A DNA stretch of 64,000 bases, taken from the NCBI GenBank assembly GCA_951406725.2, contig OX597821.1, positions 53,258,001-53,322,000 on the forward strand. The letters are read 5' to 3'. A program made the position numbers and the translations under genes. Below the pieces are notes generated by a model. That model worked only from the letters and a program-made list of their open reading frames with translations, was not told the origin of the DNA and did not search any database. Of this stretch, positions 4,781 to 62,236 are shown piece after piece; the stretch's first letter is position 1; every line of letters begins with the position of its first letter. The DNA comes from Octopus vulgaris. Its lineage: Eukaryota.

Positions 4781-6649
4781 GGAGATGAATCCATGTATAT
4801 ATATGTGCGGATGGGCGTTAATCAACATTAAACATGATGTAGGATTCTTACTATATTACCCACACAACATTCATATGAACACAGATTATTTTAATATTTG
4901 TACGTGTAATTCTATTTATACACAACACTACTTAGCGCTTTCGTTCGCTACTTCATTTACGGTGAGCCACCGAATGCACAACTAGTCATAGTACGATGAT
5001 GGGATTATAATAAGAGCAACTTCTTTCTCTTTTCAGTTCGTTATGTGTGCCTTTCTTGTTTCTGGAGCTGAAGAGGAAAAAACCCACTCCGAAATGCATG
5101 CATCCATCAGTCTGGTTTTAGGGGTGGGGGCCCTTCGAACTGTCTGAATGTGTTTACAACTTAATTGTCTATAGCGCGAAATTATCTCCATAAATTCCAA
5201 TAGCTTTGGTACGAGGTCAAATAAACCTTAAGTATATTTGAAAAGGTAACAGTTTTGTATTTATGCTGCTCATTACTGGTTAGTGCTTTTGTTCCAATAG
5301 TCATTTGAATGGACTTCTACATTAGAACTTAAATTGACACAGAAGTATTGCCCTATGATTCTATAAGCATATATGATAAGTTTGTTGCTATTATGACTTT
5401 CATGGATGAAAATGACAATTTAAGAAGTTACTGCAATTTAAGAAGTTACACTAATTATATTCAGAAAAATTTTCTTAAGATCTTTATGGGAGACAGATAC
5501 TTTCATCTTTTATTGAATAATCGTTACTTCAATACTAGAAAAAAACCTGCTGTGTACTACAGAAAATGTTCTCAGAATGTTTCAATTCACGACCATGCCA
5601 AAAGACATTAGGTAATAATAATATACGCCTACATATTTTCATGACCAAAATAACTATATTTACATTCTGTCAGGTAAGACGTAATGCTTTCAAATGTTTT
5701 TGTATTTTCCGTTTAGAGGCACTTAATTTGCTGTCAAACATTCTAGAAACTTCTGAAACTTCAGAAAACTAGAAAGAAATATCTCTAGAATGTTCTTCTC
5801 AGATCAATCATGACCGTGACTCGACTTCGCAGCATAAATCTTGTTTTGTGACTAAATAAATACAAGTAAGAATTTTAGGAAAATAAGTCACGAGCACTTA
5901 CTTAATATGATTTCTTTGATTGACTGAACACTGTGTGTGGAAGGTCATTTGGCTGGTATATATATTAGGTTGTATGCATATATAAATTTAAGTATATATA
6001 TTAATATATATATATATATACGCGTATGTGTACAAAGGAAAGAAAAATATGCTTAACTCATGTAGGGAATATATGCCTAGCCGCATACATACACGCTCGT
6101 ATATATATACATATATATGCAGTTGAGTGTTAGTGTGTTTATGTATGCGTGTATGTAAATATATATGCTCGAAATCATAATACATGCATAATACATGTTG
6201 TAAAGTTACTAATAATAAAAGTAATTAAAAGCGTGAATTTTCGTCAGTATCATTCCAGTTGTTTTGTACCCAGGTTTTGAAACATCTAAAGATATTTTAA
6301 AAAACACTCATGCTGTACAACTTCTATGTAAAGTTTGTCGGTTGGCATGGCACATAGTAATTTATGTAGAAGCAAAAATGAACATAATTAGAGTAAGACA
6401 TTTTAGAACAAGACAAAATAAACGGATCGATTGTTAAAGAAGGAAAGAGATAGTGAGAAAGAGAGAGAGGTGGAGGGAAGGGAGAGAAAGCGAGAGAAAG
6501 GTGTGAGAGAGAAAGATAGAGTGTATAAGACTGGAGGAATCACAATTGATAACTGAATGAAGCGAAAGACACTGTATAGTATTCCCATACATTTGATGAT
6601 CTGAACGTCTATACCATGATTCCATACCAATATGGACTAGATGCAATAG

Positions 6650-13444: not shown

Positions 13445-14390
13445 TTGCAGCTCAAAGCAGTGGCCATGTAGTTATTATTGATAACCTCCTCTAATATGTG
13501 GCATTTGGTGAATAAGGGTGTTTGATGTCACAACCCTTATTTGCACCTCTTGCCGCAAGGTAGGTTCATTTTGGACTCTCGACAGGAGAGAGATCCAGTT
13601 TTGATTTGAAAACACCAACACCCACTTTGTGTAGGGCTCATAGGTTCTTTGGGAGAATATTAAAAAGCTGTGGTTCCTGAAACTCAGGCCGTTGCAGTAA
13701 CGTCTCCTGAAGCGCGATGGTATTGCTGTGATCTTTGGCACTGTATAGTGTCGACCCGTTCTGGCATTCGTGTAGCTTTCAATGCCAAAATTTTGCCACT
13801 ATTCCTTCCAGGATATTCCAGATGTATATTACTGCATACCTCTCTCGCCTTCGCTCCAAGGAGTAGAGTCTTAGTTGTTTCAGCGTTTCCCAGTAGCTGA
13901 GCTGTTGCAATGAGACGATCTTCGTTGTGAAGCTCCGCCGGATTGCTTCAAGGACCGCTGTTAATTTTACCCTCTTAGGTAACCATAGCTGAGAGCAGTA
14001 CTCCAGGCGGCTGGGGACGAATGTACTCCAGAGCACCATCATGGTTGCCTTCTCTCTAGTTCTGAACGTTCTCAGGATCCATCGAACCAGTCGTCTGCAC
14101 TTTGTCACCATCCTGGTAATGTGCACGTGGAAAGAGGTACCATCATTCATGTCGATACCCAGGTCTCTCACTGATTTAGGCTTTAGGATTGTAATCTCCT
14201 GTGGACCAGTGTAAGTTTTATATTTAGCTTTGGTCGCTGGTAGCGCAGGGCTTGGAACTTGTTTTCTTCAAGGAATGCAATTAGTTTCTCTCTGACTATC
14301 CGTTTCATGACTTTGCTGATGTATGAAGTCAGATAAATAGGCCTATAGTTTTTGGCATCTGGTCTGCTTCCTCCTTTATGTAAGAGCAAT
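13445..14390 (-). mobile_element. CR1/L2-group LINE relic (ORF2 RT fragments plus 3' end) with internal deletion
   Basis: LHKGGSRPDAKNYRPIYLTSYISKVMKRIV (RT domains 1-2) fused almost directly to RDLGIDM...SRLEYCSQLW...SYWETLKQLRLYSLERRRER (C-terminal region); YxDD core missing. Confidence 0.9.
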
Positions 14391-15461: not shown

Positions 15462-15699
15462 TACTTCTTTATTGCCCACAGGGGCCTAAACATAGGGGGG
15501 AGGACGAACAAGGGCAGATAAAGGGAGTAAGTCAATTACAATGACTCCGGTGTGTAACAAGTTACATATTGATTCGACCCCGAAAAGATGAAAGGCAAAG
15601 TCGACCTCGGCGGAATTTGAACTCAGAACGTTACGGCAGATAAAATCCGGTAAGCATTTCGCCCGGTGTGCTAACGATTCTGCAAGCTCGCTACCCTCA
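15462..15699 (-). mobile_element. tRNA-derived SINE with ~13-bp target-site duplication
   Basis: Same family as 58008-58242; flanked by TGCACTACATATT (15449-15461) and TGCACTATGTATT (15700-15712). Confidence 0.85.
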
Positions 15700-16631: not shown

Positions 16632-16636
<5 letters not shown>

Positions 16637-16910
16637 TGCAGCGTGGAAGGTGTTTGTAAGCCATATAAGAAACACACAAAAGCCGTTCGATTCACTTCAA
16701 CATTTAAGTTTGATTTGTCAAAATATTTTCGTCGCTAAAATCCGCGACCTGTTCACTGACAAAAATCCTTGCTGCATTTTTGTCAGTGAACAGGTTGCGG
16801 ATTTTAGCAACGAAAATATTTTGACAAATTAAACATAAGTGTTGATGTGAATCGAACGGCTTTTGTGTGTTTCTTAAATGGCTTACAAACACTTTCCACG
16901 CTGCAATTGT
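16632..16910. repeat. Long palindrome with 135-bp arms and a 9-nt loop; inverted PLE-type terminal repeat
   Basis: 16632-16766 is the near-perfect reverse complement of 16776-16910; loop CCTTGCTGC; the right copy extends to ~16966; (TA)n on both flanks. Confidence 0.95.
16779..16828 (+). ncRNA. Hammerhead-like fold with G3-C8 core swap (mirror copy 16714-16763 on minus)
   Basis: TTTGTCA GTGAACA G GTTGC GGATTTTA GCAAC GAAA ATAT TT TGACAAA: 7-bp stem I, 5-bp stem II, palindromic stem III. Confidence 0.55.
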
Positions 16911-29960: not shown

Positions 29961-30942
29961 AAAGAAGTGCTGGATTACATGTACATATTCAGAGCATGTT
30001 CTTCCAAAAGGCCTCTACATAATTCCTGTCAACCGGATTTCACTCCTGAGTATAAGCTAAAAGCAAGTTGATCAGGATTGTGAGCTTTGGTAACTTACCT
30101 TAGACTATGTAGTTTCGACGAAAACAGTTTTTTGTCGTAAAGCCAGTGTTGCAACGATAGCTTGCAAAGCATAAAGTGTTTATTTTCAGTGTTAAACTAA
30201 CTGTACATAAAATATTCATTCTTATATTATTTCTTCTAACGTATCTTTCTTTTTCTTTTCTAGGCTAAATTTGATAGAATTTTACAGCTACAATTTCTCT
30301 TTCAGTTAATCAAAGAAACAAGAATTTAAATGAACCATATCGTTAACTTTATGTGATCATATTCATTTAACCATGCTTACTGGATAAAAATATATTCTCG
30401 GTTATTTCTATTACGAGGCATTTATGATGCAATTTAAAAGAAATTTAAAATATATTATGGCGAAGATATTTTAGATATTCAAATATATGAGGATATATAT
30501 GTAATTCATTCTATCTATAAACAAGTATGTACTGAACAGATTTGCAAGCACATTATGATTCTACTTGTTAAAAACAATTTTCTTTTACAGCATCGTAGCA
30601 TAAATATAATTAAAGATGTAAGTGCGTGAAAGACAAGTTTTCGAATATAACATACATTAGAAGTATCCTGGATACTCCACGTTTATCTTGAAAACTATGT
30701 AATGGACGCGAAAATTTGAAGACAACTATGAGATAATTTTTGAAAAATTGTATTTTATTTCAAACATCTGATTTTGCGAAAGGAGTAAATGCTCACTGGG
30801 GTAGGAGACAAGGAGAGAACATCGTATCACGCTATAGACATCCTTATACATTTTCGTGTATTATTTTTCGATTTAGGTAAAGAAGTATATAAATAATCTT
30901 AACTAAGGACCGAAATCAAAGACAACTTATCTTCTGCTACTG

Positions 30943-31150
30943 AAAGCGGCGAGTTGGTAGAACAGTTATTATGCCGGACAAAATACTTAGCGGCATTTCG
31001 TTTACTTTACGTTCTGAGGTCAAATACTGGAATGATCGACTTTGATTTTCATCCTTCCTTTCGGGGTTGATTAAATAAATATCAGTTGAAAACTTGGGTG
31101 GGCGTAATTACCCATCCCAGAATTGCTGGCCCTGCACCAAAATTTGAAAC
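30943..31150 (+). mobile_element. Degenerate tRNA-derived SINE
   Basis: GCGGCGAGTTGGTAGAAC...GCCGGACAAAATACTTAGCGGCATTTCG...ACGTTCTGAGGTCAAAT...CCAAAATTTGAAAC. Confidence 0.75.
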
Positions 31151-41384: not shown

Positions 41385-41520
41385 AATCTAGGCACAAGAT
41401 CCGAAATTTTGGGGGAGGGGGCCAGTCGACGAGATCGACCACAGCACCAACACCGAAAGGATGAAAGACAAGGTCGACGTCGGCGGAATTTGAACTCATA
41501 ATGTAAAGACAGACGACATA
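41385..41520 (-). mobile_element. SINE fragment
   Basis: CCGAAAGGATGAAAGACAAGGTCGACGTCGGCGGAATTTGAACTCA matches the 58008-58242 family. Confidence 0.75.
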
Positions 41521-41725
41521 TATAGCTATCTCTCAGTTTTTGTGACAGTTAAATTTTTTTTCTGTGAGACAATTTCTTCAATTGAATTCTGGAAGCCATG
41601 ATTGCCTGTCTAGTTTATGCATTTTGTGCTGTGTGTTAGGCATTTATGGTTCTATTTTATGCTCCAGGAATTCAACAGAAACTTTTGCTTGTCAGATTTA
41701 ATACATTTCTGTGTCACATCTGGGT

Positions 41726-42003
41726 CCAAATTTCGAAAAACAAATTTATGAATCCAAATTTGTGTAACCAAATTTCGAAATACAAATTTCGGAATGCAAA
41801 TTAATGAAACCAAATTTAGGAAACCAAATTTCGGAATCCAAATTTGGGAATACAAATTTATGAAACCAAACTTATGAAACCAAATTTACAAATTCAAATT
41901 CATGAATCGAACGAAACCACATTTATGAATCCAATGAAACCAAATTTACGAATACAAATTTAGGAAATCAAGTTTCTAAAATCAAATTTATGAAACCAAA
42001 TTT
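41726..42003. repeat. 14-bp minisatellite, consensus CCAAATTTATGAAA/T, about 20 units
   Basis: Successive units CCAAATTTGTGTAA, CCAAATTTCGAAAT, ACAAATTTCGGAAT, CCAAATTTAGGAAA, ACAAATTTATGAAA etc. Confidence 0.9.
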
Positions 42004-42285
42004 TTAAACTCTATATATTTTACTTTTGTAAATATTTTAACTGTACATCTAGTGTAGCATTAATTTATTTCTTCCTACACATTTGTTTGTATGTAGGTTG
42101 TTTATGTATGCGGATACTTAATTCATAGTAATATTTTAAAAAGCTTCATGTGTTGTTGTTTTGGGTTTGCCTCATTATGGACACCAGATCGTAACAATAT
42201 ACATATATGCATACATATGTATTTATAAATATACATACATATACATACAATCATCCATCATACTTTCCACATTACTTATACAGTC

Positions 42286-44680: not shown

Positions 44681-44750
<70 letters not shown>

Positions 44751-44751
<1 letters not shown>

Positions 44752-45440
44752 GTAGTAACAGGAAAGAGGAATTTCAGTTATCCCCACGTGGTGAGTTGTA
44801 ATGTATATAAGAAATTAAAAAAGGAAAATACGCACACTTACATAGTTTAATATAATTTTTAATATATCGACCGGTTTCGCTATCTCTATTCATGATATGT
44901 TTTACTTATTTGAATACATATTTTTTCTTAAGAAAAAAAATTTTGTCCATGCTGTGTGTGATGAAATTCACGAGTGAATATTTTCACAAGTAAATAAAGG
45001 GAGGTAATTGTTTGTCGTTATTATTTTTATTGTTGTGGGTAAAGGAGATAACTGTTGAGCTTTCGGTAATTGTAGGGCAATATATATATGTGTACAGACA
45101 GAGAGAAGTTTCAACAACCTTGTTTAGTGAGGGGGTTTATATACAGTGATGTAATCGTGAATTGAAATATGTAAAAATATAAAAGTTGGTTATGCGTGCA
45201 TATTAAGACGTGTTTTGTATTTTTCAATGAAACAAGTTTTTTATTTAAACGTTCTAGTCGAGGGATTGTGTTTTTGCACTGGTAGAAAGGAAAGACTCTG
45301 AAATTTGGTTTGATCTTATCTGCACATTTTTTGTATATGTTCACTGAGAGGAATTTGTCTGTATTGCGCAATACAGACACATTAAAAATCATATTAAAAC
45401 TATGTGTGTGCAAAACACGAAGACAGGTGGTGTACAAAAC
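44751..45440 (-). mobile_element. 3' end of a Penelope-like element: GIY-YIG C-terminus plus 3' UTR/terminal repeat
   Basis: KCADKIKPNFRVFPFYQCKNTIPRLERLNK then frameshifted ETCFIEKYKTRLN (RxxxE..FI..Y.P.LN ending); hammerhead-like motif downstream on the same strand. Confidence 0.8.
44864..44898 (-). ncRNA. Minimal type-I hammerhead-like fold with A3-U8 core variant
   Basis: Minus: ATATC ATGAATA G AGATAG C GAAA CCGG TC GATAT. Confidence 0.55.
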
Positions 45441-45570
45441 AAACAGATGTATTAGTAGAACGCTCAGGAATAGAAAAAGTCTTTACGTTCCGAGCCTACG
45501 CTCTTCTACAGAAAGGGACACAGATAAAACAAGGAGAGAAAAAAGGAGAGAAAAAAGGAGAGAAAAAATG

Positions 45571-45612
<42 letters not shown>

Positions 45613-46452
45613 GGTAGAGAGAAGTGTAATTAAACACATACATATACTTATGCGGGGCACTTTCAGAAGGTATATGACTTTAATTTTGCGGCCAAAATTA
45701 ATGCTCTGTGGCCAGCATTTTTAGGCATGGCATAAGAATGAGACTGTCTCATAATACATGTATAAATTGATTTAGGCAAACATACTTATGAAATGGAAAG
45801 ATTTTGAAATATACTGATAAAATACTACATATATATATATATATATATATTATATCAATAATGTAGAGTTTGAGATATTTAGCAGCAAAACAGAAGTAAT
45901 AACCAAATAATATTAGACTATAGCGTGCATAAGGGTGGAGCAGCTATTCTTCAAGCTTGCCATGTGCAGGCCCCTGTAATCCACCATTGAACATATAAAT
46001 TCTTTAAAAATATATTTTTTGTCGGGGGCAATATCTGAAATCTTGGTAGGTTACGTGAAAAAAGCGAAAAAAATGCAACCAATCTTTTATTACCACCCTC
46101 TGCACTATCATATGATTGATAGTAACAATTATTTCATACATTACCCATTTCATACATTACACATAATGCAAACAATTTTTGTCGGAGGTGATCATTCAAT
46201 TATATCCATCATGCTACTTGACTACTAATCTAATGTTATCGACCTGAAATTCATAGGACAAGGTGGGCGTTGGAGTGAATTGACCGTAGGACGTAAAGAC
46301 TCGGGAGAATGCCGCTATTTATGTTGTTGAAAGTGCTACCGACTCTAGCAGTTCACCGCGATAACAACAATAACAACATGATCAACACCACTACCAATAC
46401 CACCACCACCAATAATAGTAATGATGAGGATGATGATAATAATAATAATAAT

Positions 46453-46519
<67 letters not shown>

Positions 46520-46522
<3 letters not shown>

Positions 46523-47075
46523 GCCCTGATGCAGTACCAGACAGTGGTTTCCATGGCTTCTGATCTTAACTGATTGGAAGTGTTATCATGTACATTGTTT
46601 TGTCTTGGTATAAAAGATGGGCTATAGCAAATATACTGCTCAATACCAGAGATGTGCTTGTCAGTTGTTTGACCATAACCAGTTGAGCATGTCTCTTAGT
46701 GGCTGACGATACGTGCATCTCTGATCACGAGCAGAAGTAGTGGGGGAGCATCATAGCCATGTGTTGAGAGGAAGTCTTTGGAGTTTGAATAATTCACCTC
46801 TGAAAACATGGCTCTTTCGTTCAACGTCCTTAAACAACCATTATTCAGGGACCTTTTTGAGCCGAATGGGTTACTCGACCAGAAGATAATTCTAACTGGG
46901 CCCCACCTGCAAGTTCATGTGCTGATTATCTCGATATAAGATCATCATGTCGTGCACACATGGTTGTGATGCATGCGCCTAGTGTACCCTTATCAGACGG
47001 GTAGTCATGATGGGTATGCTGGGCTTTGTATATTTTACCCCAATATCACCGTAGTGGCATGCACTGCTCTCTCAC

Positions 47076-47078
<3 letters not shown>
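46520..47078. mobile_element. ~560-bp interspersed repeat, copy 1, within an (AAT)n array
   Basis: Collinear with 47177-47707 (ATGCCCTGATGCAGTACCAG...GGCATGCACTGCTCTCTCACT); flanked by (AAT)n on both sides. Confidence 0.85.
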
Positions 47079-47151
<73 letters not shown>

Positions 47152-47176
47152 GAAGAAGAAGAAGAAGAAGAAGAAG

Positions 47177-47707
47177 GAATGCACTGATGCAGTACCAGGC
47201 AGTGGATTTTATGGCTTCTGATCTTAACTGATTGGAAGCGTTATCATGTATATGGTTTTGCCTTAGTACAAAAGATGTGCAACTGCAAATATTCTACTCA
47301 GTACCACAGATTAATCAGTTGAACATGTCCCTTGGTGGCTGGCGATACGTGCTTCACAGATTACGAGCAGAGGTAGTGGGAGTGCATCATAGCCATGTGT
47401 TGAGAGGAACCCTTTGTGGTTTGGCTAATTCACCTTTGAAATGATGGATGTTTCGTTCAACATCCTTAACATTTTCTCAGGGACCTTATGAGCGGGAAGT
47501 GCTACTCAACCTGAAGAAAATTCTAACTGGACCCCACCTGCAAGTTCATGCTCTGTCTATCTTGAGATATCACTATGTCACGCACATATGGTTGTGGTGC
47601 ATGTGCCTGGTGTACCCTTATTAGACCGGTAGTCATGATGGGTATACTGGGCTTTGTATATTTTACCCCAGTGTCACCGTAGTGGCATGCACTGCTATCT
47701 CACTCAA
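47177..47707. mobile_element. Same repeat, copy 2 (diverged), between (AAT)n(AAG)n and (AGT)n
   Basis: ATGCACTGATGCAGTACCAGGCAGTGG...GGCATGCACTGCTATCTCACTC. Confidence 0.85.
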
Positions 47708-47757
<50 letters not shown>

Positions 47758-47769
47758 ATAAATACATGA

Positions 47770-52409: not shown

Positions 52410-53050
52410 CCCTTTCGTTACTATATTTCTGACCAAAATACACCCCTTATGTGTTTCAATTAATTTATAACGTAATCATAAATTTAGTCTGGTTTCATTA
52501 AACAACAATAACTTTTTTATTTATCAATATATTAATGTGATTTTTGGAAGATAATTTAATGAAATGTCCTCAACCAATTCTATACTACAATTTTTGTCAC
52601 AAAGTGACTCTAATTGCAGGTAGATACAGTTAAATTCAACAATATATAAAATTATTAAAATTTTGTTCAAACATCGCTATAGAAAATGGGTTATTAGCTA
52701 ATATTCAATTGGGTATACAACAAAATTTTACGATAGAATTTGTAATACTGGGTAACTTTCTGATACCCATAATAATATTTATGGCAAAATAGGCCTTAAT
52801 TTCATTTAAGGTTGTGGGAAATAACAAACTATCGTTTCTTTCGTTTTGTTTACGTTTAGCGTAACGGTTCGTTTCTGCCGTAATGATTTCAAATAGGCTC
52901 ATTCGAAAAAGTAAATAGAAATAGTCTAAGGCTTTACCCTTCTGGGAAAGTCTGTGGCTTGGTGCAGTTTCTTCAGAAAAATCACCGAAAGAAACAGTTT
53001 TTAAATTTTCACTCCATTCAGGTACCAATTCGTTTTCTTTATCGTTGTCG
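52410..53050 (-). mobile_element. piggyBac fragment (one terminus plus transposase N-terminal piece)
   Basis: TTAA|CCCTTTCGTTAC terminus at 52406-52421; ORF 52705-53028 ALDYFYLLF..LFEIITAETNRYA..PTTLNEIKAYFAINIIMGIRKLP typical of piggyBac transposases. Confidence 0.85.
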
Positions 53051-53169
53051 GATTCACTGTTTTCACTTTAATTGCTGCAAACTTGCAAAGACAAAGGAGG
53101 AGAAGGGTGATAGCGTCAGTGAAACAGTTCGGTCCGTTTGTGTGTGTGTGCGTTTGCGTGTGGTGTAAA

Positions 53170-56979: not shown

Positions 56980-58007
56980 TCACTACCTCTTCCTCCTTAT
57001 CAAAGTTTCTTAACGAAACGGTGTTTGGCGCGTGTTATATCCCGCTGGTATTTGAATTTATGTAAATTAACCCAGTTCCTCATTTCTTCGAGGAAGGTTG
57101 CCAGCACTGAAATATTTTGAACTGAAGATATAAGGATCGCAATGCATCTTTTTATGACGATCACTTCTTTTCTGAATGACCAATATATTTAAACAGTGAT
57201 ATCACCAGAGAAGTTATGGTCTCAGTCTATTAGAATTGGTGACATTATGTGTCGAGTTGAAACCTCGGTAACTTCTTGTCACACCATACCATGGTGGCTA
57301 GTATTGCTCGAACAAGCGCATAGGCCACACATCTCTCTGAACCACGTTATAACCCCTGGTGACGTAGGGTTATTTTGTGTCTTCACACTTGTCCCCTACA
57401 CTAACCACATTCCTAATATTCTTCATTTCCTCCTAACCATTTGAGCTCCAGTCTGCGCAGGAAAAGTTACCTCAAAAATATCTCCTTATGGGTTACAGTT
57501 ATGTTGTAACTTACAAAATGAGATGCAATCTGTGCACATATAAATAAAACACTATATTTCCTCATCCTCATCCATAAGCATCAGAAGTATGCCAGTCTCT
57601 CCTCAGCTTATGGCCCAAAAAATTCTGTCTCCTTTTCCAGCCTCATTTACCACCACTGCAGTTAGGGACTAGCTGGTCTCGTGTCTCCTTTATCCCGCTT
57701 CTGTAAATTCATTTGCCGCTTCTCCGCCTATCTATTAATTTCACTCACTTCATCTAGTAGCAATTTAGTTACTACACCTAGAACTTTGGCGATTTGGAAT
57801 TCCCACAATTTGCATGTAATCTCTGCAACCGTTATTTTGTAACCGCTGAGAAGCCCAAAAGCCCATCATTCTCACCACTATGTACGGTCAATTCTTCAAG
57901 AACAAAACTTCGACAAAATTACACCCGTTTAAATTCTAATTTCAAACGCGACCAAGATTGGTTTTGTCGTTCATCTTGCGACTAGTAGGGATACTAATAG
58001 AATTACC

Positions 58008-58242
58008 TTTTTCTTTACTACCCACAAGGGGCTAAACATAGAGGGGACAAACAAGGACAGACAAACGGATTAATCGATTATATCGATCCCAGTGCGTAAA
58101 TGGTACTTATTTAATCGACCCCGAAAGGATGAAAGGCAAAGTCGACCAAGGCGGAATTTGAACTCAGAACGTAACGGCAGACGAAATACCGCTAAACATT
58201 TCGCCTGGCCATGCTAACGATTCTGCCAGCTCGCCACCTTAA
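58008..58242 (-). mobile_element. tRNA-derived SINE with perfect 13-bp TSD
   Basis: TAATAGAATTACC at 57995-58007 and 58243-58255; minus head AAGGTGGCGAGCTGGCAGAATCGTTAGCA; B-box-like GAGTTCAAATTCC. Confidence 0.9.
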
Positions 58243-58677
58243 TAATAGAATTACCAGCAACATACACTTCACTCCCGTGTTGAGGCTGACATTCAATATT
58301 TCTAGAGAAGACATATCAACACCGCACTTTCTCTTACCGGTATTTAATTTATTGATTCTATTATATTAGAACACCGTAATATTATCAGTGACATTTCATC
58401 AGAGGGTGTTTCTCTGAAGTTTCTTGTCGTTTATATTTCATTCTAGACCTCTTAATAGATTAATTATCCTGTAAATTTTAATTCTATATACAAATGTATC
58501 TGCGAACATGTTTAGGAGGCATGTATGTTTGGAAAAGTATTTAGAATCTTGTATTTGTGTATAAACGTATGAGTATGTCTGTGTTTGTCTCGAAGAGCAT
58601 ATATGCGTGCATGTGTTTTTGTTTGGTATGTGCGTGTGTGTATACATGTATATGCATGATTTTCATATTTATGTCTG

Positions 58678-61497
58678 TGGGCCATTTTCTGCGATAAAGC
58701 AGGTAGAAGAAGAATTGGACAGACTGGAGAATATGGGAATTATTCAAAAGGTAGATTATTCAAAGTGGGCAGCAACAACTGTGTGTACTGAAAAAAAAAA
58801 TAAATATCAGGGTGTGTGCAAATTTCTCTACTGGTTTGGACGACAATAAAAGAAAAATGTGAAACTATCCGCTGCCTACTCCGGAGGATATTTTTGCAAA
58901 ATTAAATGTTGGCAAAATGTTTTCGAAACTGAATCTGTCTGATGCGTGTCTACAATTTAAAGTAGACGAGAATTGCTCGAAGCATCTAACAGTGAATACG
59001 CATAGAATACTATGCAAATATAATAGATTGCCATTTGGTCTGAAGGTCGCATCGGCAATATTTCAGCATGTTATGGATGCGATGTTGGCGGACTATTAAT
59101 TTGCAATTCCATATCTCGATGATGTATTGATTAAAAGTCGAATCTCGTGATCAGCATATCGAGCATTTGCAGTGTGTTTTTTTTTTAAATAGGAGATTAC
59201 GGTTTCACACTCAGGGACGAGAAATGTGAATTATTTTTGCCCAAAATCAAGTATTTAGGACAAATTATAGATAAAAATGGAAGACGACCTGACCCGTCGA
59301 GGGTAGATGTAATTAAAAATATGCCTCCCCGAAATAACATGGAAACATTACTAGCTTTTGATAGTCTGGCAAACTATTATCAAAATTACATACCAAACAT
59401 GTATGAAGTGAGAGCTCCACTTAATAATTTTCGAGATAAAAATAACAAATGGAATTGGTCAAATAATTGTCAAAAGGCGTTTCGCGATATTAAAAGAATA
59501 TTCATTTCTGATTTGTCACTTGCTCATTTCAATTCTGCAGCGTAGATTGTAGTAGCTTCTAACGCTTCTGAATAGGGTTTAGGAGCAGTTTTGCTATACA
59601 AATATAAAGACGGTAATATGGTTCGTGTCTTAGGTGCTCTGATTGCAGCAGAAACAAACTAAAGTCCGATAGAAAAAGAAATTGTAGCGATTATTTTTGC
59701 CTTGAAAAATTTCACAGTTTTCTCCACGGTAGAGGTTTCCGGATTCAGACCGACCATCGACCATTTTTATCAATTTTCTGATCGAAGAAAGGAATTCCTG
59801 CTCATACAGCTATCAGATTACAACGCTGGGGTACAATATTATTAAAATACAACTTTAAGATAGAGTATATTCTTACTATAAAAAATGGCTATGTGGAGTG
59901 TTTATCTAGGCTAATTCCGAAGAATGCGGAAGTGTTGGAAGATACGATGATAGCCGAATTACAATCAGAAAAGGAAATTAAAATCATTATGTGTAATGTC
60001 ATTCGGAGAGTGCCAAGTGACTGTACAAGATATAATAAGTAGATCAGCAGGGGAAAAATACATAAAATGACGGAAACTCTAAAATAAACAAAACAGAAGC
60101 ACGATTGTGAACCATTTTCTACTCTGGGACGATATATTAATGTTCGTAAAACGAGTGGTAGTACCACCTGCACTACAAAAACGGATATAACATAAATTTC
60201 ATAGTGGACACCCAAGGATAGCAAGAATAAGAGCTTTGATGAGTAGTTATGTATATTGGCCAACAATGGACCGGGATATTGAAAATTTGGTAAAATCATG
60301 TAAAGGTTGTGCGTTAGCAGCCAAGGCACTACCGGCGAAATACCAATTGTGGCCTGAGACGGATAGACAGTGGTCCACGGTACGTATACACTACGTTGGG
60401 CCAGTGAATGGCGCGTACTACTTGATCATTGTTGATAACTTTACTAAATGGCCTGAAGTCTGCAGATGGATTTAACCTACCTCGAATGCAGCAATAAAGT
60501 TCCTGCACGAACTTTTTGCTCGATACAGTGTTCCGGACACCATGATATCGAACAATGGAACACAATTTACAGGATGCGAGTGCAGGACATTCTGTAAAAT
60601 GTATGCAGTCAAGCACGTGTTTACCCTGCCCTACCACCCGAGTTTAAATGGGCCAGCAGAACGATTCGTAGATACGTTCAAGCACGTGCATAAAAAGCAA
60701 GGAACGAGTTAGGAAATGGCGAAGCGTTAACTAAATTCATAAGGGTGTACAGAATAATGTCCGACCCAAATACCAGTTCAACGATCTTTGACAAATTGTT
60801 GCTAATTGAAAAAAAAAAACCTATAGAGATAATACAAAAAATTCAACTAAATATTTTGATGTCGGAGACAATGTCCCTTTCAAAGTATACAAAAACGGTA
60901 AAGAGAGTTGGTAGGATGGTGTAGTGACTAAAAGAATTGGAAACATAATGCATTTAGTAAAAAGCCAACGATGGAAGCACAGGTGACACCTAAATCACTT
61001 AAAAATCAGATGTACAGAAGAAAGGAAGAAAACTCCGATGGAAGTGTTTAACATGTTTGATGTGCCAGCACCGAAAGAGAATGAGCCTAAAAGGAGTAGT
61101 AACAGAAAACGTAAACAGACTTAACATTTAGAAATAATCCCTAAGCGGAAAAAGGTACTGAGCTCCCAAGGGAAGTAAAATTTTAAAAAGGGAGAGGTGC
61201 TGGAAAGAAAGAAGAAAAAAGAAATTTCGTTTCGTACTGAAGTCGAAATCTCAAAAGGAGAGATGTTGTGGCGAGAATCACGACATCGCCTGCGTGAATA
61301 GACTTGACCGGACGACTATAAATAGTAGCTGTCTGAGTCAGAGAAAGAAAGACAAGACGTAATGTGTCGGATTATCGTTTGCTGGTTCTTGTACAGTTCG
61401 TGGAGAGTTTTTTGTATTGTTACATTATTGTTACCCTGCTTTGCCATATGTTAATTGATACTACACGATTATAGCGTAAACAAGTATCGTCATAACA
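58678..61497 (+). mobile_element. 5'-truncated, pseudogenised Ty3/Gypsy LTR retrotransposon (RT, RNase H, integrase, PPT, 3' LTR)
   Basis: KQVEEELDRLENMGII; FSKLNLSDA..YNRLPFGLKVASAIFQ; YLDD at 59112-59123; IKYLGQIIDKNGRRPDP; HSGHP..YVYWPTMDRDIENLVKSCKGC (integrase Zn finger); GPVNGAYYLIIVDNFTKWPEV; PYHPSLNGPAERFVDTFK; many stops and frameshifts. Confidence 0.95.
61264..61497 (+). repeat. 3' LTR of the Gypsy element (~234 bp)
   Basis: PPT AAAAGGAGAGA directly before TGTTGTGGCGA; ends TCGTCATAACA (11-bp inverted termini, 2 mismatches); TATAAATA at ~61317. Confidence 0.8.
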
Positions 61498-61854
61498 ACT
61501 GGTAATTCTACAATAATTGGTGTCGAATAGCTACGTTACAATATAATGTGAATATTCACTTCTTTAATAGTCACCTTGCAAGCGTCATATTAACTCGATT
61601 ACGTCATACATCAGATACATTTTATTACCACAATATGGAATTTTGAAATACTAGATCAATTATTTTCTTTTGTACACAGTTAGAATTTCCTTGGTGAAAT
61701 TTTGCTTGTGGGTGAAGACTTAAAGTTATCGACAACAAAAAATGCCGTTATATTCATCGTTTCAAAATAATAAGATTAACATACTATGGTTGGCGTTAAT
61801 AACATTTCGGTTAATTAATACATACCACTTATCAGCAGCAATATATCTGTTGCT

Positions 61855-62236
61855 AAGGCGGCGAGCTGGCAGTAACATTAGCACGCCGGGCGAAATGCGT
61901 AGCCGTATTTCGTCTGCCGTTACGTTCTGAGTTCAAATTCCGCCGAGGTCGACTTTGCCTTTCGTCATTTCGGAGTCGATTAAACAAGTACCAGTTACGC
62001 ACTGGGGTCGATATAATCGATTAATCCGTTTGTCTGTCCTTGTTTGTCCCCTCTGTGTCTAGCCCCTTGTGGGTAGTAAAGAAATAGGTATTTCGTCTGC
62101 CGCTACGTTCAAATTCCGCAAAGGTCGACTTTGCTTTCGGGGTCGATAAATTAAGTACCACTTACGTACTGGGGTCGATCTACACGACTGACCCTCTCCC
62201 ACCAAATTTCGGACCTTGTACCTAGAGTAGTAAAGA
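61855..62236 (+). mobile_element. Composite/dimeric tRNA-derived SINE with 14-bp TSD
   Basis: Head AAGGCGGCGAGCTGGCAG..; the internal block GTATTTCGTCTGCCG..GTCGACTTTGC..GTACCA..CTGGGGTCGAT occurs twice; ATATATCTGTTGCT (61841-61854) and ATAAATCTGTTACT (62237-62250). Confidence 0.9.

Follow-up and report, generated by a model that had tools for sequence, protein, structure and literature searches.

A high-copy repeat family of likely Penelope-like origin carries an A3-U8 variant of the minimal hammerhead motif

The 64-kb stretch of DNA analysed here, referred to as the window, contains a compact hammerhead motif in which A and U occupy core positions 3 and 8. The motif lies in the 3'-terminal part of one decayed member of a high-copy repeat family, and contigs from public sequencing runs revealed that A3-U8 is the state of the great majority of family copies, not decay. 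We put at about 0.6 the probability that the locus is the decayed 3' end of a high-copy, likely Penelope-like element (PLE) whose family's minimal type I A3-U8 hammerhead is likely a slow self-cleaver that works only as a dimer. The motif is a variant of a known ribozyme with predicted activity; it departs from the literal C3/G8 consensus, A3 and U8 being present in both the window copy and the family, but positions 3 and 8 remain complementary.

The element copy and its endonuclease remnant

The window is AT-rich, animal-like DNA (33% G+C) with abundant microsatellites. Two tandem ~650-bp non-coding units, 80% alike and with (ATT)n and (ACT)n microsatellites between them, occupy 46419-47761. 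A 14-bp unit forms a tandem array at 41708-42025, and a dispersed ~250-bp repeat is present in at least five copies that are 73-90% alike (15462-15695, 30933-31087, 41450-41520, 58000-58249 and 61846-62094). Three frames look by eye like remnants, which we take to be of a LINE reverse transcriptase end (13475-14267, minus strand), a piggyBac-type transposase (52705-53067, minus strand) and a Gypsy-type polymerase (59189-59545, plus strand).

The repeat family was surveyed with contigs of four public runs (four of 24 listed, with four organism labels and from four studies), placed on 44775-45400 at 80% likeness. The runs contributed 1438, 2053, 1676 and 858 contigs, and in every run all but one of the 30 bins had depth. 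Contigs placed in this manner represent all copies of the family, not specifically intact ones; copies less than 80% alike, such as those of sister families, fall outside the survey, rare variants are dropped by contigs, and differences between the window copy and the family were read from the 40 rows listed. The parts of the element copy outside the motif are as follows.

45368-45383, no strand assigned: fold-back, an inverted copy of the truncated element's first 16 nt at the 5' junction
45190-45368, minus strand: GIY-YIG-like endonuclease C-terminal remnant in three pieces and two frames, with its stop at 45192-45190, 5'-truncated at 45368
44899-45189, minus strand: 3' untranslated region of the element, from stop to motif; every bin covered in all four runs, with low depth at 45069-45089
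44752-44863, minus strand: 3' tail of the element, ~117 nt from cut site to end, covered from 44775
44683-44751, no strand assigned: (TA)n microsatellite adjoining the element's 3' end, the likely insertion target

Both ends of the copy are defined by family contigs. Loose ends at 45368 (13, 26, 20 and 18 contigs in the four runs) extend the reading frame upstream; thus, the window copy is 5'-truncated there. The arms of the fold-back at this junction (45352-45367 and 45368-45383) are 94% complementary with no spacer, and family depth is zero at 45384-45400. At the other end, loose ends at 44778 carry family sequence on to ~44750, where (TA)n starts. Majority differences from the family in at least three of four runs account for 28 of the 40 rows listed, or ~5% of 594 nt, a divergence that marks the window copy as old. 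Lesions particular to this copy show at 86-99% of depth.

About 58 C-terminal residues of the putative endonuclease are present, and the GIY and YIG boxes would lie upstream of the truncation. Two offsetting frameshifts disrupt the remnant, in A-runs near 45327 and 45239; in the family, the frameshift-offsetting indels were found in 4-16 and 7-13 contigs per run, respectively, with a minority depth of 9-18% and 3-28%. Protein P0001 matches all three pieces (E 3.5e-5 among 1.84 billion proteins), at 66% over the middle 32 aa and at 35% and 56% for the outer pieces. Protein searches returned P0001 as the only homolog of near length and none that was longer. The second of the two protein matches, P0002, was dropped as a repetitive protein. 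The remnant had no Pfam match and no credible PDB match, and its structure model was of low confidence (pLDDT 46.5). In view of these three outcomes, GIY-YIG is a label that we infer. Visual comparison of the remnant, P0001 and the loose ends reveals two His positions, a strand ending in Pro, an E-x-x-F-I helix and a terminal LN, and by the same kind of comparison these features also occur in Fig. S2 of PMC8557442, an alignment of PLE endonucleases.

These motifs, together with architecture, indicate that the element is likely a Penelope-like retroelement. 5' truncation, an inverted piece, a microsatellite flank and high copy number are all present, as expected of a PLE. A telomerase-like reverse transcriptase is missing from this truncated copy. 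Because the frame stops directly behind the putative endonuclease, the element would be a canonical PLE and not Naiad. An endonuclease terminal to the frame and followed by a hammerhead, as well as 5' truncation with an inverted piece and a microsatellite flank, is described for the canonical Neptune, Nematis, Penelope/Poseidon and Hydra elements, unlike Naiad PLEs, whose endonuclease is N-terminal (PMC8557442).

The initial annotation presented the locus as the clearest link between a variant motif and a PLE. Membership of motif and endonuclease end in a single repeat family is supported by the depth in 29 of 30 bins and by joining contigs, whereas the PLE label itself is one that we infer. 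The interval between motif and endonuclease end is tiled by overlapping family pieces. Five joints, among the 15 single-contig joints listed, connect 44890-44898 with 45098-45295 as two separately placed parts of one contig.

The motif and its state across the family

The motif reads ATATC / ATGAATA / G-AGATAG-C / GAAA / CCGG / TC / GATAT on the minus strand, from 44898 to 44864, and is made up of the following parts.

44894-44898, minus strand: stem I 5' strand AUAUC, five Watson-Crick pairs with GATAT at 44868-44864
44887-44893, minus strand: core box A3-U4-G5-A6-A7-U8-A9, a CUGAnGA variant in which an A3-U8 Watson-Crick pair is possible by sequence
44879-44886, minus strand: stem II, in the window copy a single G10.1-C11.1 pair (44886 and 44879)
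44870-44878, minus strand: G12-A13-A14 and palindrome A15.1-CCGG-U16.1, a predicted 6-bp intermolecular stem III
44875-44878, minus strand: GAAA (44878-44875), overlapping the palindrome ACCGGT (44875-44870)
44868-44869, minus strand: predicted cut after GUC, between C17 at 44869 and 44868, by analogy with the hammerhead consensus
44864-44868, minus strand: stem I 3' strand GAUAU

A minus-strand motif with a 5-bp stem I, an A3/U8 core, an ACCGGU palindrome and a GUC site at 44869/44868 is thus borne out as initially annotated. So is its proposed position ~300 nt behind an endonuclease-like end on the same strand, the distance from the stop of the upstream frame (45192-45190) to A3 being 297 nt. 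A type I three-way junction is provided by the 5-bp stem I, a 2-bp stem II in the family and a predicted 6-bp stem III in the dimer. The remaining type I consensus (U4, G5, A6, A9; G12, A13, A14; A15.1-U16.1; an NUH site) is complete in the window motif, and no majority family change affects these conserved residues among the 40 rows listed. The G10.1-C11.1 pair that typifies PLE minimal hammerheads is also present; the extra base usual in them between positions 9 and 10.1 is absent.

Four matches in the window, all of them Watson-Crick at 3-8, came from a descriptor that did not constrain positions 3 and 8. The same descriptor yielded 0.015 matches per shuffle on 400 local dinucleotide shuffles, and an A3-U8 match was absent from all 400; the significance of this comparison is overstated because the descriptor was shaped after the matches had been seen. 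An Rfam search of 44780-45560, run without a canonical minimal PLE hammerhead as control, returned none of the hammerhead families at E values up to 10; on the whole window, Rfam gave microsatellite-driven miRNA matches only, among the 150 of 248 rows listed.

A CTGAnGA core in the family was the observation held in advance to count against the A3-U8 claim, and the contig survey bears on it directly. In the per-run counts of change types, C3 at 44893 would appear as T>G and G8 at 44888 as A>C. There were seven T>G places per run, each reaching 8% in every run, and all seven lie away from 44893; thus, C3 makes up less than 8% of depth in four of four runs. A>C places numbered zero in three runs and one, unlocated, in the fourth, which places G8 below 8% in at least three of four runs. 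The great majority of family copies accordingly lack the canonical core. Depth at 44885-44895, which brackets positions 3 and 8, was 1,500-89,000, and no row at 44893 or 44888 is found among the 40 listed. The A3-U8 core can also be read in the loose ends at 44896-44897 (13, 3 and 2 contigs). Minor G3, U3, A8 or CpG decay may exist at ~8-30% of depth, given the 40 rows listed.

The sole substitution within 44864-44898, among the 40 rows listed, is at 44885 and restores stem II. On the motif strand, C at this position makes up 99, 98, 89 and 98% of depth in the four runs (57, 76, 53 and 33 contigs), and stem II of the family is therefore GC-GAUA-GC, with two pairs and a 4-nt loop. A stem II reduced to one pair, as initially annotated, is correct for the window copy but not for the family; it is a lesion of this copy alone. 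Uniformity of the family can stem from one master copy and does not imply selection.

Predicted dimer, published hammerheads and alternative readings

When two copies with the family base at 44885 were cofolded, the minimum was a double hammerhead at -14.9 kcal/mol, in which both stems I and the 6-bp stem III join the two copies. With the window base at 44885, another fold wins (-11.5 versus -6.5 kcal/mol for the double hammerhead). The monomer is no more stable than shuffled sequences (z +0.9), as an obligate dimer should be. Its best fold contains the pairs A3-U16.1 and U4-G16.2 and is favoured over the open form by ~1 kcal/mol. By prediction, the motif would act like a dimeric PLE hammerhead. 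The window copy is probably inactive, because it has lost one stem II pair and is solo, with no second copy of the family in the 64-kb window.

In the mechanism we propose, two terminal repeats, carried either by the same tandem transcript or by separate RNAs, would pair through ACCGGU and stem I to form the double hammerhead, in which an A3-U8 pair would substitute for C3-G8. By analogy with known hammerheads, the catalytic base would be G12 and the acid the 2'-OH of residue 8, while the nucleobase at position 8 would serve to pair with position 3. The 2'-OH of residue 8 is the general acid proposed in PMC6155905, and because A3 would pair with U8 in place of C3-G8, we propose that it still has this role. 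The RNA would be cut after GUC, ~117 nt ahead of the end of the element, trimming tandem transcripts. More speculatively, the modelled A3-U16.1 pairing might be an off state of single copies. Such a state would resemble the C3-G17 trap reported in PMC3884650, where C3-G8 is described as a tertiary Watson-Crick pair.

The motif resembles the PLE pseudo-LTR hammerheads of Cervera and de la Peña 2014 (PMC4209133), minimal hammerheads described as dimeric and slow to cleave. Shared traits are type I topology, a short stem I, the G10.1-C11.1 pair, a palindromic stem III implying a dimer, a place near the 3' end and the existence of many 5'-truncated solo copies. It differs in its core from the motifs of Fig. 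S3 of that work, 53 of which are C3-G8 out of 56, with two U3-A8, one U3-G8 and none having A3 or G3. The two-pair stem II of the window family is also shorter than any in that figure, and the base missing between positions 9 and 10.1 is absent too from a few of its rows. These two features, a stem II of only two pairs and the missing base, count against activity.

A compensated change at 3-8 is likewise seen in hammerheads with a naturally occurring U3-A8 pair (PMC3088659; Perreault et al. 2011), covarying forms of which were active in vitro. U3-A8 is carried, too, by Schistosoma Cercyon PLEs, with ~1,300 matches (PMC4209133). However, U3-A8 arises by two transitions and retains a pyrimidine at 3 and a purine at 8, whereas the A3-U8 of the window involves two transversions and inverts this geometry. 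Cleavage as a dimer and a diminished stem III are features of the small PLE-associated variants of Lünse et al. (RNA Biol 14:1499; as cited in PMC6765202), to which the motif is also similar. Published searches for PLE hammerheads rely on CUGAnGA or the U3-A8 form. We found no natural A3-U8 hammerhead in the full-text literature, outside of which lie most subscription papers, including that of Lünse et al.

The alternative that survives best is a dead relic, in which a master element lost activity and A3-U8 was then copied passively through the family. A single expansion would account for family uniformity. When a type III hammerhead was mutated pairwise (PMC9901934), the G3-C8 swap alone rescued activity while all other double mutants were low; A3-U8 would be among these unrescued forms. 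Mutating the hammerhead of an active PLE (PMC11167929) had no effect on insertion in vitro, making cleavage dispensable there, and the cut site did not coincide with the end of any RNA read; C3G/G8C was partly tolerated in this hammerhead, which required the element's protein. Naiad PLEs, moreover, thrive without canonical hammerheads (PMC8557442). What a relic explains poorly is the pattern of change: it would be unlikely for two transversions to preserve Watson-Crick pairing while the palindrome, both stems and all other core positions stay unchanged, and a 3-8 pair is kept in two further unrelated motifs of the window, each read as a single window copy. We regard a relic as unlikely, though far from negligible.

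It is more doubtful still that the hammerhead fold is kept for a role other than cutting, such as RNA dimerisation via the palindrome or binding of the element's reverse transcriptase. The dimer is the predicted best fold; the PAc hammerhead is reported to act only with its protein, uncut RNA being the main template (PMC11167929); and PMC4209133 leaves functions beyond cleavage open. Yet G5, A6, A9, G12, A13 and A14, all catalytic, are kept together with the GUC site, and dimerisation alone would need none of them. Finally, that the motif arose by chance or is what decay has left of a canonical CUGAnGA hammerhead, as might be suspected of an AT-rich copy ~5% diverged from its family and not called by Rfam, is very improbable and already largely refuted by the family contig survey, given zero A3-U8 matches in 400 shuffles and C3 below 8% in four of four runs and G8 in at least three of four, when true lesions of the copy show at 86-99%.

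Further motifs and significance

The other matches to the descriptor in the window, at two loci, are given below. A canonical C3-G8 core is absent from the four matches, and each has a 6-nt palindrome.

4929-4993, minus strand: second A3-U8 motif, unrelated in sequence (core AUGACUA), with a 4-bp stem I, a long imperfect stem II and the palindrome AGCGCU
16632-16910, no strand assigned: 279-bp palindromic element beside (TA)n, with one G3-C8 motif per arm (16786, plus strand; 16756, minus strand)

The minimum-energy fold of the motif at 4929-4993 is not a hammerhead, and tblastn with P0001 detected no endonuclease remnant upstream of it. The two G3-C8 motifs have a 7-bp stem I, a bulged G, a 5-bp stem II and the palindrome AAUAUU, and their folds are more stable than those of shuffles (z -3.0 and -3.3). 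The arms of the 279-bp element differ by a paired stem II change (U-A versus C-G), both sides of which could be CpG decay. Its predicted cut triplet is UUU, and a long hairpin would sequester both motifs in read-through RNA. A further hammerhead-like remnant (AGAAGA, a G-CGUAGG-CUC hairpin, GGAA, CG and UA) lies at 45385-45515 on the minus strand, directly upstream of the truncated copy. Its stem I is out of register and its core degenerate; with a ~100-nt tail, and situated behind (TC)n/(TGTC)n repeats, it is possibly the 3' end of another PLE family.

Pattern scans of other collections did not recover the window family. A first scan found no relatives of the window motif in viral contigs, and a metagenome scan produced six matches, five of one canonical motif and one C3-U8, with the window family absent among them. 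The five (L001, L002, L004, L005 and L006) are freshwater-like metagenome contigs of 52% G+C; the canonical hammerhead-like motif is identical in all of them, its stem I having 3 bp and its palindrome being ACCGGU. The sixth, L003, has a PLE-like inverted repeat at 680-820, in which one arm carries a minimal hammerhead-like motif, mismatched at C3-U8 but with the ACCGGU palindrome, and the opposite arm a canonical CUGAUGA box without the remaining motif. A further scan yielded two matches in prokaryote genomes and two A3-U8 matches in viral contigs, with stem I of 0-2 pairs throughout. A control scan with the canonical core gave nine matches with stem I of 0-3 pairs, and because the control likewise yields a short stem I, the comparison with prokaryotes and viruses is uninformative.

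Three independent motifs in the window thus have a Watson-Crick pair at positions that were left free, which argues for selection on the pair, in a small sample of window copies. Going beyond these, we advance tentatively, as a possibility that is itself doubtful, that PLE hammerheads of this animal lineage are largely R3-Y8 (A3-U8 and G3-C8), that this core is shared by a number of independent families whose stem III is in each case a 6-nt palindrome, and that they are active under dimer gating, with monomers locked by A3-U16.1. They would constitute a large class hidden from CUGAnGA descriptors and Rfam, and some 'hammerhead-less' PLEs may carry such cores.

C3-G8 has been treated as near-invariant, and a high-copy A3-U8 family departs from that. 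Przybilski and Hammann are said to have found in 2007 that any Watson-Crick 3-8 pair is tolerated in one ribozyme, and exchange of the 3-8 pair was reportedly shown by in vitro work of that year. Since such exchange in vitro dates to 2007, as cited in PMC3088659, the A3-U8 finding is notable and not startling. All three motif families of the window are non-canonical and one of them is a high-copy A3-U8 family, suggesting that current searches miss whole families. The family motif fits a 35-nt construct. The compensated change of a tertiary pair is sequence evidence that active-site geometry is kept in PLE hammerheads, and so bears on whether slow PLE ribozymes cut in vivo.
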